Source: Klebsormidium nitens
Taxonomy: Eukaryota > Plantae > Klebsormidiophyceae
Assembly: GCA_000708835.1 (NCBI GenBank)
Contig: DF237316.1
Span: forward strand, 1 to 64,000
DNA length: 64,000 bases
Direction: 5' to 3'
The position numbers and the translations under genes were made by a program. Shown here one piece after another: positions 4,601 to 48,639 of the stretch. Numbering within the stretch: position 1 is the first letter of the stretch; every line of letters begins with the position of its first letter. The notes beneath the pieces were generated by a model. That model ran no database searches. It had not been told where the DNA came from and was given only the letters and a program-made list of their open reading frames with translations.

Positions 4601-7600
4601 CAAGACCAGAATCTTCCAGAAGCACTAGTAACTAGGATGAAAGGATGTCAAGCTGCGTGAAGGAGGCTACACGCGGGCTACTAAGTACTACAAGTAGCAG
4701 AGCTGTACAACAGAAACCTAGTGGGATCGATCTCGCCCTTGAAAGCAAAAAAGTTCTGACAGAGTATCTAATCGCCAGTCTCACCTCGCAGACGCCAATG
4801 TTGGGGCTGAACGTGAGGTGGCTGTCCCGCACATACACCTTCACGTGCTGCCGACTGGGGTTCGAGACCAGGAACTGGAAGTCCTGCGAGAGGAAGATAG
4901 GAAGGTTTGAATCTTGAACGTGACTCTACCTTACTCTATACATCAAGAAATCCGTTGCCGACTCAGATCCGTTGCCAACTACTGATTAGGCACTAGGGGC
5001 TGATCACAACGGCCTCGGGAGAGCGGACATGTTCAAACCCCGAAAAGCCAAAGGTCCAATCCTACATACACGTTTCGTAAGTCGTTTCAGAGAAGGAATC
5101 AAGGATCAACAACCTTGCTTCCAAAACCGGGTGCTCGTACACCAGTAAGATGCAAAGACTCGCTTTTGTCGACGTCGGGATCCCTCAGATTCCTAACTTG
5201 CCCACTAACCTGGTTCCAAACCGGGTTCTTGTGGCCAGACGGGTGCGACGTCTCGCTGTTCTTCTTGCTCTCCACCCATTGCTCCCCAATCGCGAGCGTG
5301 CAATACGGGTTGCTCCAACCGATCAGCCCCCCGATCGGCAAATTCTGCGCCTCGCAGAGGGTTACCGTTAACTCGCCCTTAAACCCTTCGGTTGTCGCGA
5401 TCTTTGGCGGGGAAGCAGTGGTACCGGGGCCGATCCGGACGGCCTCTACGATGTGAGAGGCGAAGCTATGCTCCTGGGGGATGATGTCGAAGTTTATACG
5501 CCGGGGGAGGACGTATAGGTTGGGGAGGTCGATGGTCAGCAGCTTGGTCAGGAATCTGCAGCGAAACGGTGGTGACTGTTGGTGTGAGGTTCCACAGCAC
5601 CACTGCAAAATCCGAAGCTTTAAGCGACAAGGGGCGAATGACGAGTGCAAAGGAGGATGGTCCGATAGGTTGACTATAAGAGTCGTGACAGTGTAACTTG
5701 TCAAGTAACGCGTACTTTAAGATTGGCGGGAGCGGCGGGCAGCTTCGAAAGCCACAACTACTGCACTCGTATTGCCAGGTTGGCAAATTCATTAAGCGGG
5801 AGAGTTCAAAATCTGAGCGGATATGTGATTGAATAACCAGCCGAGCCAGCACTCTAAACGCAACCAAAATTAACAGCGAGCGACCGATCAGTTGAGAGGG
5901 TTGATCCGCCACCAGTTGAAGATTACTCCAGACATTCAAGCGCATGACCATCGGTAGTGACCCAGAAGGCACTTGCGTCACGACCCTTTCGACCAGGCGT
6001 TAAATTCAGAGTTCGAACGAAGCCCAGGGGATAAGCCCGTAACCGTCGTACCTAACCAGAGCAAAAGGGAATCGCAAATAGATTGACGTGGCAAAACAAT
6101 TAAAGCTGCGCTAAGCAAAGCACAGAGGTCAAGCGGAAAACCATGGCCACTAACCTGGATAGGAACGGGATTGCGAACAGATTGACCAGTCGGAACGGCG
6201 CCAGCACCAGCTTGATCGTCGGGAGGCGCACAAACGCGAGCGACACCGTCCCAACGTACGGCGCAATCGGCGCTAACCGGATCTTAACCCACAGTTCCGC
6301 GTCCACGTCGAGGTCGTAGACTCCCACCGGAATGTTGGTTCCGAACGCGCTGGCTTTGAGGTGGAGGTTAAGGAGGCAGCGTGCGTCGCCCGTGTAACGG
6401 AGACCAATATGGTACCTGGGGAAAGGTTAGATCTGGGGTTATTTCTGAGGTTCAGAGCCTGGTTAGAGTGCGGCTTTAGAAAGCGCTGGCTTTGAGGTGG
6501 AGGTTAAGGAGGCAGCTCGCGTGTAGCGCAGACCAATATGGTACCTGGGGGAAGGTTAGTTTTGGGGTTATGTTCGAAATTTAGAGCGTGGTCAGAGTGT
6601 GGCTTCGAAAGTCCTGAGTAGTTGAGGTGGATAAGAAGACAGCGGGCATCGCCAGTGTAACGGAGACCAATATGGTACCTGGGAATCAGAAATCACAGTA
6701 AAGTGGAGGTTAGCGGGGTTTACGTAACCTTTGAACATCAACGTGCAACAATCTGAGTATGCTTAGTCCATGTCGCAAATGCGATTGGTCAATATTGGGA
6801 GCCGAGCGAAAAAGAGACCGCGAGACTCACTGCAGATCGTTTGCGCGCCTCGACGTGATGCGTTGGACGTTGCGAAAGGCCAGCGGTTCGTAGTCGAGGT
6901 TGAGTTCTGCCACCTCGATCCGGTCAATCAGATCTGGCTTTGCCAGCTTGTCAATCGCCGGTTGCAGGATGTCCACAATCCACTTCTCAACACTCCGCCG
7001 GTAGATCTTCCACATCTGCAAGACGACAAGATACATGGTTCAAAGTTCCTTCAACTATACACAGTGAAGAAGAACCTATTGTCTGGCCTCATCCTCCACC
7101 TCCCTCATCTTCGCAGCCCTGCATACCTTTACAGTTGGTCTTTCCCTTCTTCATCCTTCCAAGATTTCCGAAGCCATTTGACGAGATGATACTGAAGAAG
7201 TTTTTGCCAAGTAATAGAGGCGCTCCTGGTACCTCTCCTTATTCAAGTTACGTTCGCACCTATATTTCAACTCACTTCTGGCTTGCCCGAACACTTCACG
7301 CTGGATACGCTCATCATGGGAAATCTGCTGATTTGCATGTGCAGAGAAGCATGTTCTGCTTTTTCCAAGGAGAATGGTGTGACAAGGAGGCCCCTGATAA
7401 GGAAGCTAATGGGAGAGGCTGTGATAAACCATGCATGACGATCAAGAAGAAAGCAGGTGACAGCTCTAGAACAGGCGTATTTTTTAGTCCCCAAGACGGA
7501 TCTCAATTGAGCTTTCGGCAGCAGACAGCACTGTTCGACAACCCGTCACGAAATACGCGACACATTCCTGCACTAGACGAAATGCTAGTAAATAACAGGC

Positions 7601-23636: not shown

Positions 23637-24428
23637 TGTGCTGGTTTTCTTGCTCGTGCCGCTGACCTGTCTTTTGATGCAACATGCAGCTGTGAGTCTG
23701 CCTAGTTGACTGGGGTTTCTAAAGAAGGTTCCAAAACGCATCCGTTTGCAGAGAAATGAGAGAATTGTAGTTTAAAGGGGCAAAATGATCAGAGAGCTAA
23801 GCATCGATCTGGTTTAGTGATGGAATGCTGAGAACAGCTCCTGATTGGTACACTAGGCATCTGAAGTGACGTCTAAGTTTATCTTCAACTTCAAGCTTCA
23901 AGTTCAAGAATCAAGACCGCTTCTGGAGAAGCCCTGTGCTCGTTTCAGACAAGCGAGGAAACTGCGTCTCTAAGCGTTCGTAGTCTTACGGTACTAAGAA
24001 CTTAGAAGCTTGTGCGCGGCATATGCGGGCCTACCAAATGAAGTTCACCATAAAAACGACGGCGCGATGGGCGCCCGCGCGATCATCGTGCGATCCGACG
24101 GTCCAGAAGCTCGGAAAGCTCCAGTGACGGCCACTGACTGATAACGGTATCGCAGAGGATTCTGCCAGCTGTCCCCCCGCCGCGAAGTCGGGCGATACGA
24201 TAATTACGAACATCGAATCGAAACGGTACTTAGGGACAAGGCACCGGTCAGAATAATCAAGAAACCCGACCGAGTTGCCACCCACTGCGCAGTGCATAGG
24301 CTTACGGACAGGCAACCCACGGAATAAGTACGAACAGGGCCAAAAGGTCGACCGCCGAATTTGTGGAGGCAACCCCTTAGCGGGTAATGAGGTTGGTGAA
24401 AAGGGCTTGGTAAACCCCGAATTTTAAG

Positions 24429-27400
24429 ATGGTACTTGCCATTGAGTCCAGCAGTTCGAGTCGTATTGCAAGCGGGCAAAACTATGTAGATTTTGCAAGC
24501 TGCCATGACAGGGTGGCATCACTCTGCTACACTTGCAAGCAGCAAATCTGGACTAAGGAGCCTAGCAGCGGTGCACTGAGGCTCAGCTTTCGGAAGCATA
24601 GCACATTCAAGGGCTACCTGGTCAGTGCCAGCGTGCCTAAGAGCAAGCAGGTAAAACAGCTTCTGTGCCTCAGCTGTGTTGCCCGGCATTTAGGCTCAGT
24701 CGGAGACAGCGCAGATGGCCTTTCACTGCTGCTCACAGACAGAGGCCCAGGCTTGCAAGATGCAGTGCTTTTTCACTACATTGTCCGGCCGGTTGTCAAA
24801 AAGCGCACTACGATTTGCCCGGGGCCCGCAAGATACGGGGCTGTTCATCCAGCGGGGCCACGTCAAATGTACGGAATTGAACTGGCCAATGAAACAGGGG
24901 TGGTACATATACCACGTGGGTTGGTATAGGACCGCCGGTCCCGTCAGGCTGTGAGTCCCCGGTCACTAATTCAGCGTAACATCGCCTGCAGACACAGCCA
25001 ATTCAGCTGCCCGGTGACTTTTATGGTACTACTAGCCTAGGTAGCACCTACTACGAGCCTAGGTANNNNNNNNNNNNNNNNNNNNTTAAAGTGCGCTTTT
25101 TGACAACGGGATGGTCAATGTAGTGTTTCAGCGGGAGAGGTCAGGCGCATGGCTCCAGAGGTTGCAGCTCACGGACCAGCTGCTGGAAGAGGCCGCGGCG
25201 GCCAATGAGGGCGGTAGAAAAAGGAAGAACCCTAAAAAATCCGCAGCTGAGAGCTCTGGCCGGGGCATGCAGGCAGGCAAGAGACCGCGGGCAGCGCCGG
25301 TGAGCTGGTGATTATTTTCTTCTTAGATCCTATGAATATTTGCAATGCATCAGATCTCTTCCAACAGTTGCGTCAGGCCGGCCAGATTCTGCTGGACTCA
25401 TTGCCTTGCGTGCGCCCATTCAAAGAAAGGAAACACGCGTTCTGATTACATGCTCTTCATGGAATTCATTATTGCTCGCCACCCAAAAGGCTCTTTGTTG
25501 GACAAGATTCTACAGGCAGTCTTGACCTGCTCGTTCCGCTCAGATTTTGAGCATGGTGTGATGCTGATATCTGAGGCTGGTCAGGAGGTGTATCTGAAGG
25601 ACTTGGTCGGCGCTTGCAGGCACTCGAAGGCGGGGCCCCCGGCATTGCCGGCCAAGCCACTCTCTTCATCAGTGGTGTACTAGATGGCGCGTGCCGCGTG
25701 CTGCTGCCGGCGGGGCAAGACCCTGAGGGCCCGCTCCTCGGCAGGCTCTACCTGACGGCGTGGGATCACAACCGCGCAAAGCCGAAGCCGCTTGGAAAGC
25801 CTTGCAAAGAGAAGGCACTGCTGCAGGAATGCTGGTGGGATTCGCAGGGGCGGCTCAATTGCACATGCCACCGCGGCAGGCTGGCTCTGGATGCGCCATG
25901 CGTACACAAGCTGGTCTTGGCGTCCCCCTGCACGGACTTCATCGCCAGCAGCGGCTTGCCGACCGCGAAGGACCTGAGTAGTGGGGCTCACGTGGTCGAG
26001 CAATTGGGGGAGGACCCAAGCGGGGCCTTCTACGCCGTCAGGAACAGCCCGAAGGGAGTGAGCCCGGAGCACAGAATGCTCCACCGGACCACGGCTGGAG
26101 CCTGGTACTGTGAGGGCAAACTCAGCGGCTGTCCTGCGCAAGAATGCTCTCACATCACGGCGGCCAAGGCTGCCCTAGCTGCGGGAAGGGTGCAGCACTC
26201 TGAGGGCATCCTTCTCGGGCCGGACGCCCTAAGTACGGCAGCTCACTGGATAGAGGACTGGGAGGGTGAGTTGCCGTTGCTGGGCGAGCCGGGCGAGCAA
26301 AGGGTGCGAGGGGCAGGGTGCGCAATCGAGCGAGGGGCAACGGGTGAGGAGGCGGGACTGCTGGGACTGATTGCCGGGCAGAAGCAGGGGGCGGCAGAGT
26401 GCCTGGGCATCAATTGCTTTTGTCTGGAACACCTGGTTCTTTTCGGAGAGGCGCGACCGGCATCGGAGGCTGGTGATTTAGATGGGGCCCTGGAAACGTC
26501 GAGCACCAGCGTCGAGCCTTGGAAGCGGGCGCCGAGGGGTTCGAAGTACTGGGCGGAACACCGGGGCGAGCTGCGAAGCGCCGCGCCCCGCAGTGCTGCA
26601 GGAGAGCCGGCGGAGGACGCGCGGGGCGAGGATGCGATCCAAGGCTGGGTGCCAGCTTGCCACAGCTGCAAGCTGAGCGAGACGCGGCAAGGGGGGTGCA
26701 GGCATGCGGAGGCGGGGCGCGTGCAAGTGCCAGTCATGCTGCTGGGGACGGAGGCCCTCCAGATCACGAAGCCGAAGCTGGGCAAGCTCGCCGATGCCCT
26801 CGTTCACCACGATCCATGGATCAGCTCCCTTAAAGGGGGCCTCGTCCGCGTCAGCAAGCTGCGAGACTGCCACTTTCGAGAGCTCAGCCAGATGGGGATG
26901 CTCAGGGCCGCGTGCCCGATTCAGCCTCCCCCCTGCGGCGGCAAGTGGGTGGAGCACGTGAAGGCGGCCGTTATACACGCCTCCACCTGGTCAGAGCGGG
27001 TGCTAACGACAATCTACTGCTGCCAGTGCACCAGCAAAGCGCACACGGTGCACTTCTGTGGGGAGCACCTCGGCCTCTACTGCTGGACGGCGGGGACCAT
27101 CCTGGTCCAGGAGAGCCTGCAGCTCATCCTCAAGGGGATGCAGCGCTCCGGGTCGGCCTTCTCCGCCGAGCTGGCGAGGGACCAGGAGGCGTTCGCCCGC
27201 TCCCCCGAGTCGGTCGTTTTATCGGACGAGAGCTGGCGCAGGGCGAGCTTGGACTTCTTCAAGCTAGTGGGCAGGCAGATCCTCGAGTGCTGTTCTATCT
27301 GCGGCGTGCATCCGGAGGTGAGCACTTCTTGCAGCGTGGTCTCACCTCTCGTACGGTCGCCGTTCTTTGAGGAATGAGCGATCCGCCGACGAACGCCCGT

Positions 27401-31175: not shown

Positions 31176-34100
31176 TTACCTGGATTCTCGAGGACCCCAA
31201 CAATCTTCTAATGAAGGCTGGATTCGACACGATTCGGCCACCGGCGGTTCCGAGTTGCCGTCTTCGTCCTCCCGAAGTTCGTCATCGGTCTTGAGCCGGA
31301 TTCCGAAGAAGCCAGCTGATCTGCGTCGCGAACCATCGACCATCGGGATCATTCGATTTACGCCTGTGAATGGGTGTTGATAGATGTTCTTCGCTTTCAT
31401 TGCCTGTGTTAGGATTCCGTCGTTGGCCATCGCTCTATCGTGTCCTAAACTCATCAAGAATGCGGCGTAGGCCGCCGTGATTTCGACTTTGGTGATCTTG
31501 TACTCCCTCCCCAGCTTGCAGAAACCGGAAACTCACGCACCCAACTGATCGTTCTCGGTCGTATATTTGGTGATAGCTGCGCTGAAAATCTGCGGGATTG
31601 GTTTCAGAGCCGGTGCGCTCGGATTTGCCGCCTTACGTGCGTAGTACATCATTGCTCCTTCCACGCAGAAATCTAGGGTGTCGGCAGCGCCCTCGTCCGA
31701 CTCCATGTAGTTCTTCAGGTTGGTGTCGATAAGCCTGTGCAGTGGATTATTCGCGTCGATCTGGTCCTCGCTTCTGAAAAGCTTGTTGAACATCATCAGG
31801 AGGAGGCGCCGAATCATGCCCTCATCGTTGGCGGGGAACAATGGCCGGTAATTCGTCAGCATGCATAGCTTGAAACGCGGCACATAGTTCTCCGTCTTGC
31901 AGAACAACTGGCGAGCATTGATCCCGCCTCCACCGGTTAATTCCTTCAAAGAGCCGCAGTTGAGATGCTCTTCTTGTTCGCTCTCGTCCATGATCACGAG
32001 GCGAGCTGCCTTTATGTGCATCAGGTGGGACGACGCGGCCGATGCGCTCTGGCTAAAGGCTGGTTTGATGAATATGGCCTTTGCACCGGTGGTGCAATAC
32101 GTGCCGAATGCCTTTTGCAGTGCGATTTTCAGCTGCGTTTTTCCGTTTCCTCCGCAGCCATTCAAGATTGAAAGGAGCTCTTCACAGGTCTCGCCCGTGA
32201 GGCAATACCCAAAGAACATTTGGACCCACTCGATGATGCTTTCGTCCAGGACCGAGATCATGAAACCCCGGAATTTCGCTGTGGGGGCTCTGCTTGCCCC
32301 TCGCACGTACGTGAAGGTTTGGTTGTTGCACAGATCCTTCGGATGGTGCTTCGAAAGCTGCCCGGTCTTCAGATCGATCAACCCGTTTGGTGCATTGGCC
32401 ACGCAAGGATCCTAATCGAACTTATCCGTGAGTTGGGCCACGAACAGTTCAGTGATCGTCGAATGCAGACACTTAGCCACTTGGACCGGATCTTGGACGT
32501 TGATTTTGAAGGGGGGCATATCCCTCTCGCTTTGATCCATGCAAGATTTCGTGGCAGACTTTATCATGGGTTTCCGCTTCTCGGGAACCGAATCCAAGTC
32601 CACTTCGCGCGTCTCTTGGTTCCAAAAGGGTGCTAAAACAGGGTGCTCCGATAGCAGCTTCCTCTCATGGTCGTCTCGCTTCATCTCGTACCAAGTCATC
32701 AAAATCCCCATCTGCGATGTGAACACGTTTGAGACGAGATTGTAAGTGTCTTGGATCCAAGAGGAGCCGTTCCATACGTAGAAAACCGCCGCTCCTTTCT
32801 GTGACTTTTCTGCTTCGTGCACGGTGGTAAGGATTCGGCCTTCAATCATGTATAAATATGCAAAGAGCTTGCCCAAGTTGGCAAAAGCTCCAGGTACGGC
32901 ATTGGCAAGTACGATCTGAAGCAGCAAATTCCGGGTCTCTTGAGACCCCTTGATGTGCCTCATAATTACCTGCATGTCGTCGTATTGATCGACCGGATCG
33001 CTGGTGGCATCCTCAAGAGCTGCTTCTAGGCTCAATTGGCCGAGCTTCCTCACCGGCTCGTGGGAACATTGGTCACCGTGGCAGCGGTAGTAGACATTCC
33101 GCCCGCGCTTCAGCAGGTTGAAATTATTGCTGCCTTGATGTTCGCGGCCGAAGAAGCACGTCCTAGGCCCGGTCGTCCGGAAGCAGTAATACGTACCGTA
33201 TAGACCGTGCTGGAGCGAGCTCGCATACGTGCTTGACGAATCCTTCGCCTTCTCCTTCAGCATCTTCTGAAGCTCTCGCACGAGCAGACCATCCTGCGCC
33301 AATGGCACATGTGTCGCACCCCCTGTGACCGGCTCGACCGGTCTGGCCGGCTGGACCGGCTCATCTTCTGAGGCTGGATTCTGGTCAACTTCGCCACCGC
33401 TGTCGACAGCGCGGGGCAGTGGGGCACATTCCGAGGCGGCGATCGAAGGCCCCGCACCAGCTGAGCCTCGATTGATAGTATCGACAAGCCAGCTTGGCAT
33501 TGCCTGTGGGATTCCGTCGCCCTCAGGTGCCCAGGAGTAGCCTCGAGATTCGCCGTGCTGCCCCAGATATCGAGCAGGTGGGGCAAAGCAGAGACCTCCG
33601 ATGCCTCTGCCATCGATACCGTAGTCCTTGCCTTCGACGACCAGCCCTGCAAAGTTGTTAGTTCTATTCAGGCCGACCGTTGCGGTGATGTCGAAGTAAT
33701 AGTGGTAACCCCCACTGCCGGTGACGACCTTCAATGTTGCAGGCTCACCGTGCTGGCTTGTTAGCTTGTTCCAAATTTCAATACCGGAGCGTTTTATCTT
33801 ACCGTCCGACTTGATACTGCTTGCAACGTCGACGTCGACGCAAAACAGCTTACTTGGCTCTGTCATTACAGCAAGGCCGTTACACTTCTTGGACGACCTG
33901 AGGACGCTCCCGATTTTGGCTTTCCACTTGTCCACCGTTGCCAGCTGACCCCAGGGAAGTGAGAATTTCGGATCTTTTTTACCGCTCGCTTTCAAGGTGA
34001 TGGTCACTGGTACACAATAGATTTCGTGCGTGCTCAGGCGCATGATCTCCGAGCTGACGTCCTTGGGGTCTAGGGCCGACGGCCTCACGTCGGATCGAGC

Positions 34101-34268
34101 GCCCGGGGTCAAACCGTCGGGGTATTGTTGAGGAGCCTGGAGGCCTGACGCTGACAAGGTGGCGGCAGTCTCAGAGGAGTTGCTGGTGTTCATGGCGCTG
34201 AGCATGTTATACTCTAAGGTTCTGTTAGGAAAAAAATAAGCGTCAGAAAAACGCACGTACGCGGACAA
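31176..34268 (-). pseudogene. Intronless virus-like prim-pol + D5-like SF3 helicase, ~1030 codons, with two in-frame stops (TAG 32412-32414, TGA 31533-31535)
   Basis: Prim-pol motifs GLAVMT...FCVDVD...TGSGGYHYYF...IDGRGIGG; Zn region YRCHGDQC; D5_N (FD*DPCVANAPNGLIDLKTG); Walker A GCGGNGKT; Walker B LVIMDE; TNYRP. ORFs 32412-34268, 31533-32402 and 31176-31457 share one frame. Confidence 0.85.
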
Positions 34269-34304
34269 CCCTCGAATATTTTCTCAAGTGAGACTACGAC
34301 TGAA

Positions 34305-34637
34305 ATGTCAGACACACTTAACAACCTACCCAAGAAAGGCACTTACGCCGACGAGGTGTTTACCTGTGAGTGCCGCCATTGCTTGACGGCACGAAAATAC
34401 AAACTGCGGAATCCGGATGCTCAAAACCGTTCTATGGCCGAATACTATCAGCGAAACAAAGATACCCTCCTCATTGATCAAGCATGGCTGCGATACAAGC
34501 GAGGGGTGAATCTTCACTTCAAGACCCTTACGAAACTCAAACAAGCTGGCTTCCCCGTAGAAATGACCGCTGGTGCGCCAGCCTCTCAGCCTACAGAGAA
34601 TGATCTGATGCATTTCGTTGCAGTCGAAGCCGCTTAG
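34305..34637 (+). CDS. Small basic protein (110 aa) with a CxCxxC motif, virus-like hypothetical
   Basis: Intronless ATG ORF packed between the primase and recombinase genes. Its stop overlaps the restored recombinase stop at 34634-34637. Confidence 0.55.
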   Translation: MSDTLNNLPKKGTYADEVFTCECRHCLTARKYKLRNPDAQNRSMAEYYQRNKDTLLIDQAWLRYKRGVNLHFKTLTKLKQAGFPVEMTAGAPASQPTENDLMHFVAVEAA

Positions 34638-35690
34638 CCCTTTGGTTTCCTTTCGTACGATCGCATCTGTGTGGTGACTGAATGGAGCATCCTAGACGCC
34701 ACATATTGCCTATCCGCTAGCGAGGCGTCGTTCTGGTACCGGTCTGTCAGGAAAATTGTGCCGCAAGTGGTTGATTGTCAGATGTCGCCCATCAGTGAAT
34801 GGAATCTCGCGAATGAATTGGGTTAGGTACTCGTCGTTCATAGGGTCGCCAAGGTTGCTCAGCAACGTCAGGAAAAACGCTCGAGGTACGAGCTCGATCG
34901 AGCGCTTGATGTAACACGAGAGTCGCTTCGGCATCTCGAACCGCTGCTCCCCGTACTGCTTTGCTGTTTTGAACGACTTTAGCACGAGTACGTAAGTCTC
35001 GGTGTCTCTAGACTCCTTCAAAACGTTTCCGTACTCATCGAACATGTCCTTTGCGGCCTGATTGTGAAAGCTGCCGTCCGCTTTCTGCAACGGGAGGTCG
35101 GACCAATCGCGCCGCTTAGGCGGTTCGAGAACGTTGGCAGCCAGAAGTAGGTGTTGGAAGACCACCTTCACCTCCTCTCGATTCAGGCGCCGCCCGCTCC
35201 CTCGAAACTCTGGCAGGATCTGACGCCTTATGCGCCGTCCCAACTCTTCCATTTTGTCCTTGATCTCCTGCATCGTGATCCAATTGTCCAACTCTTTTTT
35301 GGTGGCCTTTTGGGAGCCCGCGTTTCTCATCTGTTCAGCCTTTGCCAGCAAAAAGCACACGTAGTACTTCCTGTGAGTCTCCTGCCACCCGTTCTGGCGA
35401 GAGAGGGCCATAAGAGGGGTCAGCTTGTTGCACAGTGACCCTTTGCTTGGGTAGTGCTTTTGGATGACCTCGATAACCCGATCTACGCTGTCTTTGATCC
35501 ACTCTAGGTCATCCGGCAGGGAATCGCCCGAACCCAGAAGGCGATGGACCGCATTTAAAGACTTGACATACTGAGCACAGGTGCTCTCAGCCCTGCCCTC
35601 TCCCTCCAGCAATTTTGCATGGCACATGGCCGAGCCGCAGCGCACGATCCTTACGTCATCATCCACGGCTGCTTCCTGCGAGGATGTCAT
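34634..35690 (-). pseudogene. Tyrosine recombinase/integrase of virophage/Polinton-like-virus type, with a 1-nt frameshift near 34751-34755
   Basis: PPKRRD (R), SFKTAKQYG (K) and INHLRH (HxxR). The shifted frame reads LTDRYQNDASLADRQYVASRMLHSVTTQMRSYERKPKG*, which supplies the H and the catalytic Y. Confidence 0.78.
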
Positions 35691-36708: not shown

Positions 36709-37185
36709 CTAGCCTCTCGCGCTGGCTGCGAGCCGGTTGTTGGCCTTACACTTGGCGGGGTTCGCCAGGAGGTCGAGCATGAGGTCATCGGCCGTGAGGT
36801 ATCTCAGTTCGGCGATTTGTGCTTCCATCGAAATCTCATGCTGCGTGCGCACTTTGTCGCATGCTTTCCTGCTCTTGCTATGTTGCTCCGAACGTTTTAG
36901 AACAGACCCCCAGTCTACCAACAGATTGTAGGGGTTTTTGCACCGGTGCACGACTATCTCCGCCTTTTGAAGACCACGGCAAACTGCATTGACCATGTCA
37001 CACATCGAGAATGGTGGGAGGGTCCCTCGAATTCCCGAAATCTCCCCCAACGGCAGTACCATGCCGTGCGTGTGCTCCGTTTCGAAAGTCCGTTTAATGC
37101 GGCTGATAGATTTATCAAGACACTCCTGGTAAAACTGTCGGATCTGATTCTTCGTTTTGTTGTGGGCTGCCAATATATCCTGCAT
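36709..37185 (-). CDS. Hypothetical protein (158 aa), possibly related to small conserved giant-virus (NCLDV) proteins
   Basis: Intronless ATG ORF. The pattern FYQECLDKSISRIK...LPPFSM...VCRGLQ...VV...LLVDW recalls an NCLDV hypothetical family; this is from memory and not verified. Confidence 0.45.
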   Translation of the reverse strand: MQDILAAHNKTKNQIRQFYQECLDKSISRIKRTFETEHTHGMVLPLGEISGIRGTLPPFSMCDMVNAVCRGLQKAEIVVHRCKNPYNLLVDWGSVLKRSEQHSKSRKACDKVRTQHEISMEAQIAELRYLTADDLMLDLLANPAKCKANNRLAASARG

Positions 37186-37771
37186 GTTACTCGTCTTAGA
37201 TAGATGTATGAAAATTACAACTCGCTAAACCGTAATCACCTTCAGCACGTTTAGGTTGTTCAGACATTTGCGCAAAATATTTCCACGTAGCAAAGAGTCA
37301 AATCTGCCACAAAGCAAGGGGGGTATGAGCCATGAAAACGTTTGACAGTGGAGAGTCAAAACTTGCAAATCTTACTTTAGTATATAAGCTATTATCGAGT
37401 GCAAATTTTGACTGATCCGTTCGGCACCATGTAAATCTAAACGGCTCTACTCCAAGCACGGCAGGAGCTTCGTTCAGGCAAGACGGCAACCTCCTTTTAA
37501 AATTTGGGCAAAGGCAGCAGCCTTCTTTAGGACGTTCAGGTTCGTGCGCAAACCATTTTCACGTGGCGAGGGGTCTACGAAAAGACGGCGCCGGTCTCGA
37601 ACGTTTGGCGGCAGCGGCAACTTGCTCTATCAGAATGTTCAGGTTTGTGCGCAGACTATTACCACGTGGCGGAAAAAAAGGGGCCAGTTCAAAACGCATG
37701 CGACATACGTCCATGTTGCGGAAACCTTGAATATTTCCCTTGAATATTTCTGTTGACGAAGGTGCCTTGCC

Positions 37772-37978
37772 ATGAAATCTGTCACCAAGGCAAAGCAGAC
37801 AAAAACCCTTGCACCACTGGCGAAACGCGAGAAGAGTGCGCTGGTCGAAGAGGCTTCGAGGCGATATCAAGAAATGCTCGAATCCGGAGAAGATGAGGAA
37901 TTCAACGTTCTTGTGAAGGAGCATGAAGCGCAGAAAGCCCTTGGCCGGAGAGTCGAGAGTGCCAGGGGGCCGGTCTAG
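37772..37978 (+). CDS. Small charged helical hypothetical protein (68 aa)
   Basis: ATG ORF with protein-like Lys/Glu-rich composition; no recognisable motif. Confidence 0.25.
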   Translation: MKSVTKAKQTKTLAPLAKREKSALVEEASRRYQEMLESGEDEEFNVLVKEHEAQKALGRRVESARGPV

Positions 37979-38350
37979 AACGGCGATAGCCATCTTTGGG
38001 CAAGACGGTCGCCTCGTTCAGATGACGTTCAGATTTGTGCGCAAACAGTTGGCAAGAGAGTCGAGAGCGGGCGGCAGGCTCGTTCAGGATGTTCATGATT
38101 GTGCGCAAATATTTCAACGTGGCGGAACAAAGATGTGCACATAGAAGATCGTGTTCAGGATGTTTAGATATTTGGACAAACATTTTTCAGATGCGATGGA
38201 ACGTTGCAAATTCATGTCGATAGTGAATGACGTGCAAAACAGTAGATGGATATTTACAAGTCGATTTTTGTTGTCGGAAGTTGGACACCTGTCTCCAATC
38301 TATATACAAAGCTGCATCCTCTTAACACTACCTAAAGATCAACTAACGGT

Positions 38351-41300
38351 CTAACTACGTGCATAGACGCTCTTGACCCCCGGATAATACAGCTCCCTCT
38401 TTCCGAAAACGTTGACGGCCTTCCCGCTTCGCTTCAACCCCTTCCCCTCCATGCGCTTCTTCAACGCCTCGGGTTTGATTTCCTCATGCGAGAATTTGTT
38501 GTAGTCGTCGACGAAGTCATGCTCGAGAGTCTCCAGGCCGGTTCCCCGCAGGCAGTGCTTTAGAAAACGCTGCAGCATGTCGCAGTCTTCGAAATAGGCC
38601 CGCGTCGCCTCGACGACCTCCGGCGGAGTCTCGCCGAGGCCCTCATTGTAATACGCAACGGACTCGCGGGCGAGGAGGGAGAGCAACTGCTCTAGGACGT
38701 CGGGGGCTAGCATGCTTTCCTTCAGGCCGGTGTTTGCAAGCCGGTGGTCGGGATTCGATGGGTCGAATCTGTCGGCCGTCACGTAGCTGTTCGGGAATCT
38801 AAAGACTTCGATACGCCTGCGGAAGTTGTCGGCTTTTGGATTGGTCCCCGGGGGCAGCAGGGGGGGGTTGTTGGTCTGGATGAAGGGCATGTGGGTCAGC
38901 GGGAACTCCACGTTTTTGCCGTAGAGGTCTCGGGCGACGATGTCGCCCCCTCCGCACGTCGATAGAACGAGGGCCGCATCCACACACTGAGCTTCGTCCG
39001 TCTCGTCAGATATGACCATGCGCTTGTCCTTCAAGGCGAAGAGGTAGTGGGTTGGCGAGCCCTTCGAGGCAGGCCGCTGTCCAGGGGTTTTGACGACCGC
39101 GTCCGTGGACATGGTGCCGTAGTAGGGGCCAAAGGCGGCCTTGATCATCTCCTTCCACACCCCCTTCCCATCCCTGCAACGCATTACGAATCTTTGACTA
39201 CCTTCTTTTTCGATTAAATCTGATTTTGTAAAGAAGAAGGACATTGAACATCCATATTGCATAGGAAGTGAAGGCCACTAACAGAACTGCACAACGGTCC
39301 TCTCCTTGTCTCCTGTAAATACTCTGCGCATAAGTCCAAACATCCTGAAGGGCCATTGACAGGACTCCACAACGGTTATTTTTCTCGGCTCCTGGAAATA
39401 CTTTGCACACAAGCTCAAACATCCTGAACAACCTCAGGCTGGCTCACCTCCGAGCCCGATGAGAAAGAAGATCTTCTCCTCGCGCGTCATGCCATTTGCT
39501 GCGTAAGCAAACACGCGCAGATACCGCTGGATGAGCGGCTTGTTGGCGTTGAAGATGTCCTCCAAGAACTCCACGGGGGCCGGCGAGGCATGCTCCAGTC
39601 CCTGCCAAAACGGTGGTAAAAACTTAGAAAGTCGACACCCACTTGAATGATCGTGGAACGTTTGCAATGAAGGGGGGGGGGGGAGGTTGAGTTAATGGGA
39701 AGAGAAGCGAGGAGCTCACCATGTAGCGCAGATCGATCATGCGAGTGCACATGTGCTGCGGCCGGTGGGCGTCCAGAGCGCCCGTCTCCAGCTGCCAGAT
39801 GCCGTTGCGGCAGTTGATGATGTGGACGTCCTTATCCAGGAGCGCAAAGAGGTCAAGCGCATACATCTCGCCCTGCATGACCTCCATCGTGCTCTTGATA
39901 GCCGACGAGTTGTTGTAAATCTTGACGCCTTTGATGATTTCTTCCAGTCTCTGAGCCTTCTTCTTGTCCGTCTCGTCTTTCGCCTCCTTCTGCAACCGTT
40001 CGCGTACTCGATCGTACACCCTGCTGAGCTAGTGCATCATGACGAACCGGACGTATGCGCCGGTGGGATCCTCCTCGTAGCACGTCCGTTCCAGAAGTAC
40101 CACTTCTTGTAGAAGAACAGTCTGCGTAGTAGAAAAGAGAGACTATATATGCCCGCCGGTGTATCAGAAAGTTTGGCCAAAAAAAATGAACGTAATAAAC
40201 ATGCCTTTCAAAAATATACAGCCGTTTGGATGTTGGCATCAGTTTGCAGCCCAGATTCGACGGCAACCAGCGTCTCAGATACTCTACGCAGAAGCTTTAA
40301 CAACATAAACATGTCGGACCTGCGCACGTACCTGCCGCAGGATGAGTACATCTGGCTGGCAATATGGCTTCCGCCCATGTCCCCCTGGAACGCCCAATGA
40401 TCCACGAAGCGCTTATCCAGGGTCTTATAGACGCTCTCGTCGTCGGCGGAAACGGGGGCCACCTCCCCGCCGAGCATTGCCTCGTACCGGGTAAGCATCC
40501 CGATCTGCTTGAGGGGGCGGATTTCGCAGCACTCGCTGCTGCTGCAGCAGTACAGCAGCGCCCGGCCGCGGACGAGGACGGAGAAGTTGTTCGAGCTGTG
40601 TTGCTGCCCGTACGGGCATTTGCGCTCTCCGTGTGCCCTGTAGACGTACATGTCGCCGGCTGGGTACTTCTTCAGCCTGTCGAAGGTGGATCTGGTATCC
40701 CCTGCTTTTGCGAGGCACACTCGAATCCGCTCCAGAACGGCCGGTTCGGCGTTGCCATCCCTCTCGGTCGGGTCCGGTTCGGCCGTCGGACCCCAGAAGG
40801 GCTCGTGTTTGACGGAGTCCCTGAAATACACACGAGCGTTGAACGGTCGGCGGCAGCTTGAACTATCATGAACGGTTGCACACCTCATACGTCTCTGCGT
40901 TCAAGTGTTCAAGAAATGGCACAAAATATTCTCAACCTCTACAGAAGTGGTACAACGGATGCATCTACTGGGAGGATTCGAAGAGCGCCATGGCATCCCA
41001 GAACAAGCCTCACCTGGCGGCAGCCCCCTCGCCGTTGATGACCGCGATCAGCCAATCGGGCATTGCCTTCAGGTTGGACCGGTCCTTCAGGATCTCTTGG
41101 ATCCACTCATACCGCCGCTCCTCGCCGTCTAGGGCTCTGTAGCAGCTCGGATCGCAGTATATGAGCCCTCCGTCTCCCCGGGTGTCGATTCCCACCTGTT
41201 TTTCTCCACGTGAGACCTTGCCGATTGCCGCCGCTGATCAGACCCGCTTGCGTCGAGGCCGCAAGGGAGAAAAACAGGTGCAGGCCACCCCTTCCCGTTC

Positions 41301-44220
41301 GCTCGCAAGGGGTGTCGTCGGGCAAACTGTCGTTCTCTTCCACCATCTGTCCGAAGGCGACATCTCCGCCACCGGACAAATCGATGTCGACCACGTAGCG
41401 ATCCGATTCCGACCCGGTCATGATTGCTAATGATTTGCGCCCCTGTTTCACGTGCTTCTGCAAGCAGTTGTCCAGACGACACTCCTTCCAGCCGTCGGTG
41501 AAATTTCGCGGCTTTTTGACGCCGTCCTTGTTGACGAAGAGGTCCAAAGTGCACGCAGGGATTGCGAGGCTGTGAAAGTGGCGTGCTGCAGCGACGCATT
41601 TGTCTACGGCTGGCTCCGTTGCCTCTGCTGTCGCCTCCTGCAAAAGCCGGAGACCGATATTACTTTGCCCGAATTCTTGAACATCCTAAACATGCATACG
41701 GCGAAGGCTACCAGACTGGGCACGCATCCAGGTGTTTAAGTTTTCGCCGAAACTATTATGGGATCCTAGCTCAGAGGGCCTACCTCCGACCCGTCGTCAG
41801 TGGCTTCCTCAGTTGCCTCCGGCCGTGGCTCAAGTAGTCCGATCTCCATGCCAGCGTGAGCTGCTGCCCCTGCCGCCACCTGGAAAAGCTGGAGACCAAT
41901 AAAAGTTTGGGCGAATCCATATACATTTTGAACATACGTACGGTGAAGGCCAAGGCTACCAGACTTGGCACGCCTCCAGATGTTTTTGATGTTCATGCTT
42001 TTGCCCAAATTATTATGAGATCCAAGGTCAGTAGGTAGGCTGCCTCTGCTACCGCCACCTGGAAAAGCCGGGGACTGAGATTACTTTGCGCAAATTCCTG
42101 AACACTCTGAAAAAGGACAAGGAAGGCTACTCGGCAACGCATCCGGATGTTTGTGATGTTCATGCTTTTGCCCAAACCGAGGTCAGCCGACCTACCTCCG
42201 ACCTGTCGGGAGTGGCTACCTCAGTTGCCTCCGGCCGTGGCTCTTGATCGATCTCCATACCAGCCTGTGCTGCTTCCCCTGCAGCCGCCACCTGGAAAAG
42301 CCGGAGTCCGGGTTTACTTTGTGCGAATTCCTGAATACTCTAAACGGGACGAGGAAGGCGACTTCGAACGCATCTGGATGTTTACGATGTTTATGCTTTT
42401 GCCCGAAGTATTATGGGATCCTAGATTAGTAGACGTACCTGCGACCTGTCGCGAGTGGCTTCCTCAATTGGCTCCGGCCGTGGGTTTGCTTCGATCTCCA
42501 TACCAGCCTGTACTGCCGCCTCTGCTGCCGCCTCCTAAAAGATGCCGGAGGCCGAGAAAGGCTTGCGCAAATCCATAAACACTAAGATGCTATTAGACTC
42601 GGCAACGCATCGGAATGTTTATGATGTTTATGCTTTTGCCCAAAACTATCACCAGATCCAAGCTCAGTCGACATACCTCTGGATCGTCGCAAGTGGCTTC
42701 CTCGGCTGGCTCCATCCGTGGTTATTGTTTGACACCTTCGCACCATTTGGCAACAGTGGATGCGGTCTTCCACGTGTTCAAGATGTTTGGACTTTTGGAC
42801 AAACTATTTTCATGTGAGCGAAGGAGAAGGGGCAGGCTTTTGATGGAATCTGTCACGGGGGTGCCCCCTCTGGATATTTGATGTCCTTCTTTTCTATATG
42901 ATCATCTTTTTTATTAATAGGAAAAGAAAGACATTAAACATCCATAGTGTTATTGGATCGGAAGGCCATTGACAGAACTCTGGTTCTCTCCTTGGCTCTT
43001 TGAAAGAGTTTGTCCAAAAGCTTAAACACCTTGAACATGAAATCGAGAGGTTTTCTCTCGCCTAAAGTCTTTATGGGTTCCAGAGTGAAAGACCTACCCC
43101 CGAGTTGCAAATGGCTTCCACAGTCGCCGGCTCTTGCGGCATGGTGCCCACTGCCGCTGCCTCCTGGATCAGCCAGAGACCGAGATTAGTTTGCGCAAAT
43201 TCAAACATCCTAAACATAAAGCCTCGGCGGCTGCCGCTGATGTTCATGCTTGTGCGCAAACTGTATATGGGATATTGAATCATATACCAACCTCTGGATC
43301 GTCGCAAGAGGCTTCCTTGGCTGGCTCCGGCCGTGGCTCTTGTTGGATCTCTATACCGGCATGTACTGCTGCCGCCACCTGAAAGAGCCAGAGACTGAGA
43401 GAAGTTTGCGCAATTCCATAAACGTCCTGAACAAGACAAGGCATGCTACCAGGCTGGGCACGCATCTCGATGTTTATGCCGTTTATGCTTTTGCCCAAAA
43501 CTATCACGGGATCCAAGCTCAGTCGACATACCTCTGGATCGTCGCAAGTGGCTTCCTCGGCTGGCTCCGGCCGTGGCTCTTGATCGATCTCCATACTAGC
43601 ATGTACTGCTGCCTCTGCTGTTGCCTCCTGCAAAGTCGAAGACCGAGAGAAGTTTGCGCGAATTCCTGAACACGCTGAACAGGACGAAAAAGGCAACTCG
43701 GCACGCATTCGGATGTCTATGATTTTTTACTTTTGCCCAAAACTATCACGGGATCGAAGTCTGTAAACCTACCTCTCGATCGTTGCAAGTTGCTTTCACA
43801 AGTGACCCCCGGCCTTGCTCATCTTCCATCTCTGCCGGCGGTTGGTGAAAGTTGTCCACCCTCGTGTCCAGCTCCATATCAGTTGCCACTGTCGCTGCCA
43901 CCTGGAAAGTTTTCCAAGAATAGTTTGCGCTAGTTCCTGAACATCTGAACACTGGATGGAAGATTTCTACTGATGTGCATGCATCTTGTGGTGTTCAAGC
44001 TTTTGTCGAAACCTTGTCACAGTGCTAGTGAACTCACCACTTTGCAGGCGGGTTTTGGCCGCTTGCCTTTTTTTGGCATCCTCGTCTTCGTGCGCTTTGT
44101 GCTTTCGTTACTGAGCATGACAGCCTCCAAACTAGTGCTCATGCTACTTACGTATTCCGGAGAAGTTGGCGAGTACAGTGTCTCAGCTCCTGGAGCCATT
44201 TCTGGACTGTGGTTTTCCAT
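38351..44220 (-). pseudogene. Second prim-pol/D5 helicase gene, intron-containing, with an N-terminal array of acidic repeat exons (copy A)
   Basis: First exon 44220-44038, then repeat exons, then prim-pol (LAIMTG...YVVDID...TGRGGLHLFF...IDTRGDGG). Further motifs: CPYGQQHSSNNF, D5_N (LDKDVHIINCRNGIWQLETG), and helicase (DGKGVW, MVISDE, QTNNPP). GT-AG introns lie at about 41000-40832, 40330-40120, 39720-39605 and 39447-39177. There is a frameshift near 41210 and a TAG near 40030; the frame at the last junction is unresolved. Confidence 0.78.
41620..43960 (-). repeat. Tandem array of ~9-10 degenerate exon+intron units (~200-250 bp each), block A
   Basis: On the minus strand each unit reads ttttccag/tgcag | VAAEAAVHAGMEIDQEPRPEATEEATCxxxE | gtaggt/gtatgt/gtacgt. 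Confidence 0.85.
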
Positions 44221-45025
44221 CTCAAAAGGCGGGGTTTCAATGCTAAGAATCGATGTACAACCGTGCTGTATGTTGGAGGGAGCAATGCCGACTACCTTGC
44301 ATCCGCTTGTGCTTTCGCCACTGTTTGGAAGCGCTTGCTAAGCTTTTACAGTCGTGTATCTTGTGCCGATCACTCATAAGCCCTCTTTGAACCTTGCAGC
44401 TTTTAGCAAGACTTTGAACACGAATTGAAACCTTTGCACGAACGTTTGCGCACGGTGGCCATCGACGGCCGTCGCTGCACGATCGGGAAAAGTTTGGTCC
44501 AGACCTTGAACAGTCTGAACATGCTCGATGAAGCCCCAAGATAGCCTAGCCTAGTTCCCTCCGGCGCTACAAATTTGGGTGATGCGGCGGGCGTCGCCGA
44601 TCGGTTGAGCCTAACGTTCGACTTCATATGGTTTGGCCGCATATTCGGGAGGTGGGCGAGTCCTTGGGCCCTGGGGCGCCTATCGAGGGTTTGAAAATAA
44701 GGTCGGTCAACGTGGCAAGGCATTATCGCATACTGTTAGGTCTATGACATTGGCGGGCTGTCAAGCCCAGCAGGAGACGTGTCATCTGTAGTACTTTGAT
44801 CCGGAAAGCAGTACTGATGGGCGTGGCTATGAAGGCTGGTCAAAATACTCATAATGATCAGCCTTCGTTGAAGGGCAAACCATATGCAACCACGTAAAGA
44901 AAAGCAATGAAAATCCACGTACTATCTTCTAGTAGGGGCCATCAGAGTTCAGAACTTCAGCATTCAAACTAAACACAGCAACAAACGTTTGGCTTGCTCT
45001 CAAACGCCACGAATTTCCTTCAAGA

Positions 45026-48000
45026 ATGGCGGAGGTTACCGAAAACCATCTGAGAGTAAAGCTGCATGCTCTGCAGATTCTGTCCGGACAGGAAGGTGCA
45101 AGCCTACTGCTTACGGAACTGGGGGTAGCCATAAAAACACAGATGGGACATACAGTGAAGGGAAAATTGAAAAAGATTCTAGCACTGTTCCCTGCTGATT
45201 TCTGGATTGATGCTCAAGACAAAGTAGTCCTGCTCAACAACCAGAGATCCTCAGGAAGGCCTATAGTGCCCCTCGAACAGGACGTTCTCCGTGCAAACCC
45301 CTCAAGATGCCCCTCTAACTTCCTTCCCACTGTCACAGTCCAAAAGAAGGAAGGAAAGGCTTCACAAGCAGGGGCAGTATTGCCTGCCTGGGTGGGCATC
45401 AAGCTGAATCGTGTGGCCTCCCAAAGCGGTGCATCTAACAGCAGCGCATCTGCAAGCACAAGCCAAAACTGGCTCATCAAACCAAAGGCGCCAACTCCGG
45501 TGACTGCAAACAAAGTGCCAACTCCGATGCCTGCAAATCAAACTTCAGAGACCAAGAGACTGGGAAAGCTTCCTGTGACTACGAGGCAAGCACCAATTCA
45601 TTTGACTGGACCTCAAGCACCATTTCAAGTAAACGAGACTCGAGCACCAGTTTCATCAACTAGGAATGACGAGGCACCAGTTCCAGCAACCAAGGACCAA
45701 GCATCGGTTTCAAATACAGCCGTCTGGGTACCCCAGCCACTGGTCGCTCCAGAGAGTCCCAGCCAGGTGCTTGTCATCACCGACAAGGAAGCTCTGGGTG
45801 CCGCTGTTCAAAGCATTGCACAGCATTCCACCATTGCAATCGACTGCGAAGGTTGCAACCTGAGCCGGACAGGAAGGCTGTGCCTCGTCCAAGTGGCGCT
45901 CCCCCCTCCCAAGCACTGCGTATATCTCTTTGACCTTGTCTCTATGGACTCTGACACATTAGAAGCACTGAAGCAAAGCCTCGGGACTATACTTGAGGAC
46001 AGGAGCGTCACAAAGGTGATCCATGACTGCAGGCAGGACAGCGACGCCCTCTTTCACCAGCTTGGCATCCGGCTGGATGGAGTGTTTGACACTCAGGCTA
46101 GCTACGTGGCGCTGGTTAAAGTGCTGAAGGCGCAGGCTTGCAGCACGAGCAGGTTTGTCCCCCTGCCAGGCCTAAACCAGCTGCTGAAGGAGTATACCGG
46201 GAAGGAGAACTCGGCGAAGCAAGATGGAAAGGTGCTCATGGAGAGGGTAAGTTATGCACTGCTGGCTGTTGAAAGAAGTACTCTTCAGCAACGGGGTTTG
46301 TGTTCGTGTTTGTGTTATTTGTGGCTTCCATTGGTTCTGAGCCTCAGAATGGCTGTCAACGTGTCTAGTAAGTGATAGGCAGATCAAAAGCGTTCTGTTG
46401 GGCTGACCAATGAGGAGGCATACGAACTCGAGCAGGGCTTGAAAGCGAACGTGTACCAAGCATTCTTTTTGAGCTGTAAGAACTCACCTTTCATTTGAAA
46501 AGGCAATCAGTGGAGAAGGTTCTGCCATTTGCCTTGAAAGATTGATCAAATTTCTGCAGCTCTATATCGTGAAGATCTCACCTAAGCGATCATTAGACTC
46601 CATCAGACGAGGACTTCTTGAGCTTTAAAACCTCCCTCGAATTGACCGCTGAGGTTGGAGATGGGAGCTTCCCTGCTCCCATCTTTGACCTGGAAGCTTA
46701 CAGGCAAGTCACTTCGAGATGCATTGTGAAGCCATCTAACGATAAGAACTGCTGAGGTATCACCAATAAAACCCAGAGTCGGTCCGTCCTCCTTGCAGGA
46801 CCCCTCCATCTGGGAAAAGCGCCCCCTCAGCTTCGTCCTCCTACAGTATGCGGCTCAGGACGTCATGGGTCTCTTTGCCGTCCAAGACGGTATCCTCCGA
46901 GACTCTTCGAAACTCGCCCTGGCTCAGCTGTCGCTCGCTAGTGCACAGTACGTCGGCGCGTTTCGCAACAACGGGGCGTCGGGAGCCCCTCCCAGCGGGA
47001 AGCAGAGGATGGCTTTCAATAAAACGGGCCGTCTGGTGCCCGTATCCGAGTTGACTTCTGAAGACACAGCCCCTGAGGAGAGCAACAGCACGGAAGAAGA
47101 CTTAGCGGAGCTGCTGGCTCTTCTTCCGATAGACTTCACCGCAGAGCTCGCGAGCGGGGGCCATCGACTTATGGAGATTGTGCTCGACTTTGGCAGGCGG
47201 CCTGTTGCGCGCTTCCTCGATGGTAGCCGCGCGTTTCTCGCCCCTGAGGTGGTCTCGAGAGCAGCCCTGAACTCCGCAGTTCAGCGACTGGGTGCTTTTG
47301 GGAGCGACAATCGGGCGGGCGTCCCTGGCACTCTGCATCGCATCAGCGCGCTGCGAGAGAGGGACTCAGGGGAGGTTCTTGGGCTGACCTACCGGGTGGG
47401 CCGAGCGGTTCTTGGGAGTGCCAGCATGGCGCGTGATATGCTGAAGACGGGGGGAAATATTTTGCTCCTGGGCCCTCCGATGACGGGCAAGACAACAATA
47501 ATACGAGATCTGGCGCGGCTTCTGTCGGACGACAGTTGGGTGGTGATTGTGGACACCTCGAATGAGATTGCGGGAGCAGGGCCTGTGGCGCATGCTTCGG
47601 TGGGGAACGCTCGACGGATGCAGGTGAGATGTGAATCCGACTTTCAAAAGGGAAGCATGCTTTTCAACCCGACGTTGCCGCCGCAGATTGTCGAGAATCA
47701 GGTCCAGGGAAGTATAGAGGAGTTTTGAGGGAAGTATGGGAAATTCATTTTGCTTGGATTTCTGTCTGCCTTTGTTGCTCGAGCTTGTGAAGAGATGGTA
47801 TGGGAAGCTGACAGCCCTGAACAGCCAATCCACTTTGCGTTGTCTTCACGAAGCAATTGAGGAGGTAAAGATGATTCATTTCGAACCGTTTTGACTCCCG
47901 CTTGTACCCCGTCAAGCAGTGCATTTGCCCGCTACGTTTTCCTTTTGAATTACATTCATCTTTTGTATCATTCTTTGTTTTTGGCTATTGGCGTCCTTAC

Positions 48001-48615
48001 ATATGCCCCCTACCTATTAGAAACGATCAACACGCTTAGCATACGAGTCATGGGCTTTGCAGCATTTTGCATCATGAAGTGTTGCCTCTCGCTTCTTTGT
48101 AGCCGAGCATGGCATTCTAACAAGATATGAATTGTTTGTAGGTGAAAAACTTGGAGAGCCAGTCCGCAACCATGATCGAGTGCGTTCAGAACCACGCCCC
48201 AGAGGTGATCGTTATAGACGAGATTGGACGCAAGAAGGAAGCAGAGGCTGCGCGCACAATCGCCCAGCGTGGCGTGCGCCTCATCGCGAGTGCGCATGGA
48301 AGCCTCGCCAGCCTCGTCTCCAACCCGTTCCTTTCAGAGCTGCTGGGAGGAGTGGACCTCGTGACAGTCGGCGACTCTGCTGCAAATAAGTTATACAACG
48401 GCAGAAAGAACGTCCAACAGCGGAAGCGCGAGTCCATCTTTCAGACGATCATCGAGCTCGCCCCAGAAAGGTTAAGCGAGTGGGCGATCTTCGATGACGT
48501 TGAGACGAAAGTCGATAAGATTCTTAAGGGAGAGCCCTTCGAAGCAGAGATTAGAGTTTTAGACACTCAGACGGGGACGATCATGGTAGGACGAGAGATA
48601 CGTGTTCACCAATGA
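45026..48615 (+). CDS. Fusion protein: winged-helix (LOTUS/OST-HTH-like) N-terminus, DEDDy 3'-5' exonuclease (EXD1/Egalitarian-like) and ycf45/SpoIIIAA-like AAA ATPase; exons 45026-46246, 46799-47623, 48142-48615
   Basis: ExoI IAIDCEG, ExoII IHDCRQDSDAL, FDTQ, ExoIII YAAQD; DNRAG...LHRISA...GLTYRVGRA; Walker A GPPMTGKTT; VDTSNEIAG; QNHAPEVIVIDEIG; ASAHG. Both introns are phase 0 and GT-AG, and no disablements were seen. Confidence 0.85.
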
Positions 48616-48639
48616 TTTGACCCCCGCAATTGTCTAGAT

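Follow-up and report, generated by a model that had tools for sequence, protein, structure and literature searches.

A probable stack of phase-0 exon cassettes on a broken primase-helicase gene of Klebsormidium nitens

The repeat array described here lies in a 64,000-nucleotide stretch of Klebsormidium nitens contig DF237316.1 (the window), and is in our judgement probably a stack of spliceosomal phase-0 cassettes, likely created by tandem duplication, on a likely virus-derived and broken primase-helicase gene of the Prim-Pol/D5 type. The gene is present in three copies (A, B and C). In copy C the exon stack is real, because spliced joints lie at the predicted sites; in copy A it is read by homology. 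The case is of interest as a viral-type replication gene with a eukaryotic structure: its introns are spliceosomal, purifying selection acts on its first exon, and its tail was apparently made by duplication of a symmetric exon and seems to have grown under a constraint on the frame only. Literature searches, with most subscription journals outside their scope, found no description of such an element or array.

Structure and state of the three copies

On the plus strand the array resembles a noncoding satellite. The initial annotation had parsed it on the minus strand into exons bounded by AG and GT, the last acceptor running in frame into a prim-pol domain, and both claims were borne out. The minus strand of copy A contains an ATG exon and seven repeat exons of 66-129 nt, followed by an acceptor at 41637 that opens the Prim-Pol exon (PF09250, E 1.4e-8). 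Eight of eight predicted introns in this chain are GT..AG, the length of every exon is divisible by three, and there is no stop codon upstream of the primase, a stretch of about 293 codons; the gene has 12 predicted introns in all. The seven full repeat exons are all of phase 0-0, and with the splicing of C this supports the symmetry claimed for the cassettes. The exon ends given earlier were correct or off by 1-2 nt. The parts of copy A are the following:

44038-44220, minus strand: first coding exon, beginning with ATG, 183 nt, 61 codons, phase-0 donor (the homologous exon of C is spliced)
43773-43901, minus strand: repeat exon A1, 129 nt, phase 0-0 (parsed from splice sites and frame)
43532-43627, minus strand: repeat exon A2, 96 nt (parsed from splice sites and frame)
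43292-43378, minus strand: repeat exon A3, 87 nt, with a GTTGGT donor (parsed from splice sites and frame)
43098-43163, minus strand: repeat exon A4, 66 nt, missing from the earlier list (its counterpart C3 is spliced on both sides)
42677-42720, minus strand: degenerate unit, a half exon that has a donor but lacks an acceptor in register
42439-42534, minus strand: repeat exon A5, 96 nt (parsed from splice sites and frame)
42196-42291, minus strand: repeat exon A6, 96 nt (parsed from splice sites and frame)
42030-42058, minus strand: degenerate acceptor-only unit, the 3' part of the exon and the donor being deleted
41784-41879, minus strand: repeat exon A8, 96 nt (parsed from splice sites and frame)
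41014-41637, minus strand: repeat-like start and Prim-Pol domain exon (PF09250)
38351-40820, minus strand: four predicted exons for the Cys/His middle domain, D5_N and the SF3 helicase

Exons C3 and A4 are 94% alike. The Prim-Pol, D5_N and SF3 domains are all present, with matches to PF09250 and PF08706 and to PHROG primases at E values down to 3e-28.

The repeat-encoded tail of A has 58 D/E against 13 K/R in 232 amino acids, and is predicted to be disordered (FoldIndex -0.15), its longest D/E run being 3. The acidic disordered N-terminus proposed earlier thus holds as a prediction, in frame with the primase. The peptide quoted for the single exons does not hold in the same way: it is a consensus and not the product of any one exon. 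In the first exon (44038-44220) a single YSPTSP-like heptad is encoded that is similar to the CTD repeat of RNA polymerase II (Pfam E 0.89); the heptad is present in A and C and absent in 172 relatives, and a basic NLS-like cluster comes after it.

As assembled, the Prim-Pol/D5 gene of copy A lacks a continuous reading frame. It has three frame changes (between 41229 and 41195, between 40108 and 40076, and at the predicted junction 39448/39173) and a TAG at 40031; the first in-frame stop, at 41109, would give a product of 459 residues ending inside the primase region. Some of the breaks, one of which lies at a run of five A, could be sequencing errors, and A could be less dead than it appears. 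The junction at the helicase Walker A is off by one base both in A (39448/39173) and in B (near 49915/49730), which may be a shared old lesion, a missed micro-exon or a wrong junction. The other two copies are:

49331-53163, minus strand: paralog B, comprising a first exon, repeat units both complete and truncated, and helicase remnants
55232-58554, minus strand: paralog C, spliced transcript

Neither B nor C gave a Prim-Pol match. In C the frame shifts downstream of the first ATG, exon 2 contains a TGA, either 5' ATG frame ends early, and in the chain supported by RNA the longest ORF starting with ATG has 143 codons. A telomere-like CCCTAAAA run at 51144-51184 lies in repeat exon B6 and breaks its frame. 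The three local copies thus all have the look of pseudogenes, although some of the breaks could be sequencing errors, and this limits their functional interest.

Splicing and constraint of the repeat exons

Contigs of runs X1 and X3, which belong to one study and were classed as RNA by guess, cross six splice joints in copy C with 0 mismatches, all at sites predicted from the register of the family. All six are CT..AC on the plus strand, that is GT-AG on the minus strand:

58102/57966, minus strand: joint of C, in X1 and X3
57826/57684, minus strand: joint of C, in X1 and X3
57556/57369, minus strand: joint of C, in X1 only
57304/56704, minus strand: joint of C, in X1 and X3
56609/56121, minus strand: joint of C, in X3 only
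55647/55492, minus strand: joint of C, in X1 and X3

The check for splicing between units that had been proposed with the parse has its answer in paralog C; the splicing of A we infer by homology with C. Two contigs of X3 retain intron sequence of C in unspliced form, and runs X6 and X8 had no match on C. Across 24 RNA runs the covered share of 38000-44500 was 0.00 in 23 and 0.02 in one, and the only mismatch-free match on A, among the matches listed, was at 41320-41456 (X3); none of these results bears on expression.

Other RNA matches concern relatives of these copies. A joint from run X2 at 52456-52595 fits the first intron of B (138 nt, CT..AC), its placement being ambiguous; it may come from B, from another paralog or from an alternative acceptor. 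Contig matches of about 41 nt at 41302-41342 and 40644-40685, with 7-8 differences and a depth of up to 8567 (X4) that does not measure expression, hint at a distant Prim-Pol relative in the RNA runs. Additional paralogs are indicated by contigs that are 85-90% alike at 39731-39924 and 38545-38778.

The exons are constrained in length. Over A, B and C 17 of the 19 repeat exons have a length divisible by three, as against 8 of 19 introns, and so do 7 of 9 distinct exon length classes (p=0.008). Among exon indels 15 of 25 are multiples of three, among intron indels 11 of 69 (p=6e-5); for indels of 1-2 nt the counts are 4 of 25 and 41 of 69, respectively (p=2e-4). The absence of stops from the repeat exons of A has, taken alone, no significance (P 0.11-0.35). 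Acceptors in register have A at -2 in 28 of 28 cases and G at -1 in 25 of 28, the three misses being in B and C (A: 9/9). The donor rows were placed at the exon end, so their counts are partly circular: GT occurs in 24 of 25 rows (the exception, C9, is a misplaced row), +5G in 23, +3A in 19 and +4G in 16.

The dN/dS of the repeat exons was 0.97-1.27 in four pair sets, which overlap and are not independent, and purifying selection on the repeat residues was rejected on this ground. As the exonic indels tend to keep the frame while dN/dS is about 1, frame and composition, and not the residues, appear to have been kept. For the first exon pS was about 0.30 and pN 0.11-0.15, giving a pN/pS of about 0.4 (A against B and C; A vs. 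B, Fisher p=0.018). It had been expected that splice sites and frame would be better conserved than intron interiors. This was true of the AG and of the frame; it failed for a 38-nt motif in the introns, which is equally conserved. Mean identity between units, along spanning trees of A, B and C, was 0.84 for exons and 0.82 for introns.

In a tree of 18 units the grouping is by position across A, B and C and not by copy (B1/C1 and B6/C7 are well supported), thus much of the array is likely older than the three copies. The identity of units B5 and C5 at 365 of 368 bases hints at conversion or assembly collapse. An integron-like shuffled order of cassettes was rejected, since the units pair by position and their order is collinear by eye.

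These data bear on two other explanations. That the array is a non-coding satellite with AG and GT by chance agrees with the dN/dS values and with the lack of significance of the stop-free exons of A, but the six exact joints in C, the frame-preserving indels and the open frame from ATG to Prim-Pol leave it almost no credibility. The joints in C reject it, unless the contigs are artefacts.

The second, suggested by the initial annotation, is that the symmetric exons are skipped in many combinations, tuning the length of an acidic, DNA-mimicking tail on an active primase. We consider this unlikely. Every intact exon of A is of phase 0-0, the transcripts of C bypass a 71-nt unit and two further units, and the 5' and 3' arms of the introns can pair across units (-8 to -28 kcal/mol); moreover, exon skipping in K. 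nitens is associated with short exons and short introns (PMC6142364), which makes skipping plausible here. However, the units jumped by two of the joints in C are degenerate (71 nt, not a multiple of three; donor deleted; or AG and +5G lost), and none of the six joints of C has a donor joined to two acceptors, in contigs that drop rare forms. Combinatorial skipping of intact cassettes is therefore no more than plausible. As to the tail, acidic disordered regions of other DNA-binding proteins cause autoinhibition and speed up target search (PMC10250230), but the dN/dS of about 1 and the short D/E runs weaken the DNA-mimic proposal, and the enzyme part of A is broken.

The 38-nt motif of the introns

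The motif consists of two TGTTCA-like hexamers nine bases apart, followed by a TTTGCGCAAA-like palindrome. With a matrix built from 20 of the matched sites it has 69 matches, all within 37247-58554, where about 0 were expected; the shuffled-sequence control gave 0.15 matches above score 8 per strand, and the exact pattern matched 8 times vs. 0 in shuffles. No match was found in 1-37246, after 58554 or in the host gene at 44.6-48.7 kb. Most repeat introns contain the motif as an inverted pair, sub-threshold arms being visible in the alignments. Elsewhere it occurs singly, namely at the ends of a fold-back, at three places in introns of the catalytic part (39315, 39394, 40896), in the 3' flanks and upstream. 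Around and within copy A these include:

44485-44522, minus strand: upstream copy of the motif
42774-43038, no strand assigned: 265-nt MITE-like fold-back inside intron 4, with the 38-nt motif at its ends (folding z -9.6)
37247-38188, plus strand: 3' flank of A, containing five motif copies

The fold-back has copies in C and, in partial form, in B. The core columns of the motif agree in 26-27 of 27 cases, as well conserved as the splice AG. Compared with shuffles the introns fold with z values from +2.5 to -3.3, and 2 of 16 are below -2. A strong RNA hairpin in each intron was rejected, because the introns mostly fold no better than shuffled sequences, and for the same reason the motif is probably a DNA site. 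Its pairing in the introns makes it possible to test whether DNA sites of mobile elements are connected with the birth of exons.

The conservation of the motif is left unexplained by tandem duplication. In an alternative explanation the amplified unit would be a DNA element, the motif binding a protein encoded by the element, inverted sites driving the copying of cassettes and splicing making the result tolerable. Candidate binders would be a recombinase, a transposase or the primase-helicase itself. The confinement of the 69 sites, the occurrence of single sites outside the repeat introns as described above, the near-invariant columns and the weak folding of the introns, more easily reconciled with DNA sites than with RNA stems, are all in its favour; so is the predicted start of a relative's protein, P0155, which reads like the motif translated (1 of 172 proteins). 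On the other hand, the collinear unit order and the tree fit inheritance by position, and no target-site duplications were noted around the units. The idea is compatible with the anatomy described above; we give it a rather small chance of being correct. About equally doubtful is a bolder proposal, that these belong to a hitherto undescribed class of nuclear, intron-bearing mobile elements with Prim-Pol/SF3-helicase genes in algae of the Klebsormidium type, whose own machinery amplifies spliceable phase-0 cassettes bracketed by the 38-nt motif and so gives the replicase an acidic tail of variable length; in this proposal cognate 38-nt sites would mark the element ends and bracket every cassette.

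Repeated insertion of introners (mobile introns) into a repetitive coding region would be another source of the introns, which form one sequence family with inverted arms and carry the motif also in the non-repetitive catalytic part. But introners are alike introns between unrelated exon flanks, whereas here the flanking exons are homologous and the likeness extends through them, which the definition in PMC12768974 excludes; moreover, the host-gene regions of the window have no motif. This origin seems very improbable to us.

The reading that we prefer, tandem duplication of symmetric exons, has precedents in the collagen, Dscam and mucin-type arrays, where phase-symmetric units likewise stand head to tail and keep the frame. 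As is characteristic of such duplications, the units have AG/GT bounds of the same phase, they are alike in exon and intron, and in C they are used by the spliceosome. Unlike those arrays, the present one sits in a mobile-element replication gene.

Gene family, possible history and neighbourhood

A search with the neighbouring primase returned 582 proteins at E<=0.001 (representative set). The nearest named relatives of the primases are labelled Klebsormidium nitens and K. subtile. With P0042, the relative having the strongest summed matches to A, nine proteins were found at E<=1e-20, the query included, all with a Klebsormidium label. The Klebsormidium family (GAQ84945, GAQ83556, GAQ92546, GAQ79182, GAQ92370 and others) has the same domain order as A, i.e. 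Prim-Pol, Cys/His middle domain, D5_N and SF3 helicase, with 27-68% identity over matched pieces and about 40-60% in the main domains. A streptophyte alga thus seems to harbour a primase-helicase family of many copies. Its members have long acidic N-tails too, and two of the annotated ends appear, by eye, to enter introns at the same positions. The tails are non-repetitive by eye. In 9 of 11 examined proteins, those with a measurable landmark, they are 101-536 amino acids long with 14-28% D/E, and compared as proteins none of them matches the repeats of A; of 153 proteins compared with A none matched above 41640. Since the relatives too have acidic tails, though unrelated in sequence, an acidic tail is a family trait, and the exon stack the way in which this lineage makes one. 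Searches for longer proteins with the primase piece and the helicase piece of A found none at E<=0.001, metagenome scans with an alignment and with the motif pattern found none, and of the viral-contig scans two yielded short, weak matches (1 and 2) and the others none.

The following history is consistent with these results. The starting point would be a Prim-Pol-SF3 helicase gene, Polinton-like or giant-virus in type, that entered an algal nucleus, acquired introns and spread into a multi-copy family with acidic N-tails. In this lineage one symmetric exon with its intron would then have been duplicated in tandem, phase 0-0 permitting units to be gained and lost without a frame break, so that selection could keep frame and acidity and not residues. 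The arrayed gene would have been copied three times (A, B, C) and would then have decayed. In the once-active protein the tail, preceded by a putative nuclear-targeting first exon, may have been a flexible polyanionic spacer or an autoinhibitory arm; the latter reading is suggested by analogy with the acidic regions of the DNA-binding proteins mentioned above.

The likeness to Polinton-like viruses and endogenous elements (PMC10120064, PMC12220804) consists in a primase-helicase beside a YR-like ORF, a trait which is present here with the YR assigned from Atlas features. The nearest Atlas clusters of this ORF are mostly viral, 2 of 3 Preplasmiviricota (0.98), and it has no Pfam or PHROG integrase match. 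PMC10120064 treats such elements as intronless, in contrast to copy A with its many predicted introns and broken frames. In the scanned ORFs (overlapping sets of 25, 9, 6 and 25 of 161, in a window with N gaps) there was no capsid protein or packaging ATPase family. Since no capsid gene was identified, membership in the Polinton-like viruses is not established. NCLDV core genes have been described in Klebsormidium (PMC5294986), and decaying endogenous giant-virus genes of green algae likewise combine viral-type replication genes with spliceosomal introns among the genes of the host (PMC12768974). Unlike those, the introns here would have arisen through tandem exon duplication and belong to a single motif family, and one paralog has a spliced transcript.

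Genes for a plastid-type ATP/ADP transporter, a C2-domain protein and an exonuclease/Spore_III_AA protein show the window to come from an intron-rich green plant or alga. The last corresponds to a host-like transcript at 44565-48703, in which, according to RNA contigs, a Spore_III_AA-like ORF is spliced to a 3'-5' exonuclease ORF; it lies between A and B, head to head with copy A. The 24-59 kb span holds a KDZ-type transposase gene, a second, intronless Prim-Pol/D5 gene near copy A, the YR-like ORF, a DUF5759-like ORF (score <0.9, a lead only) and the three copies. The intronless gene, in 31176-35690, is interrupted by internal stops at about 32412 and 31533, and the C-terminal motif of the YR-like ORF in the same region appears, by eye, to run on in another frame. 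An Rfam scan of 37000-53500 returned 0 matches.

The terminal inverted repeats of Polinton-like viruses measure hundreds of bp; the only candidate in the window sequence is a 63-bp inverted pair (24014-24075 and 58648-58710, 34.6 kb apart), which looks more like a shared 5' motif because it recurs upstream of A. In the region preceding the KDZ-type gene, at 24014-24431, a 30-nt motif is common with C (26/30) and A (22/30), and a 20-nt ATG context is 17/20 like those of A, B and C; the matching regions are 44218-44645, 52781-52800 and 58281-58710. This common sequence may be a shared promoter or an element end. Within the KDZ-type gene, at 24774-25125, there is a mini-element with CACTA-ended inverted repeats and an N gap. 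In the region of the C2-domain gene, at 6343-6683, a 129-bp tandem repeat of 2.6 copies with a GT-like donor sequence may be another exon duplication.
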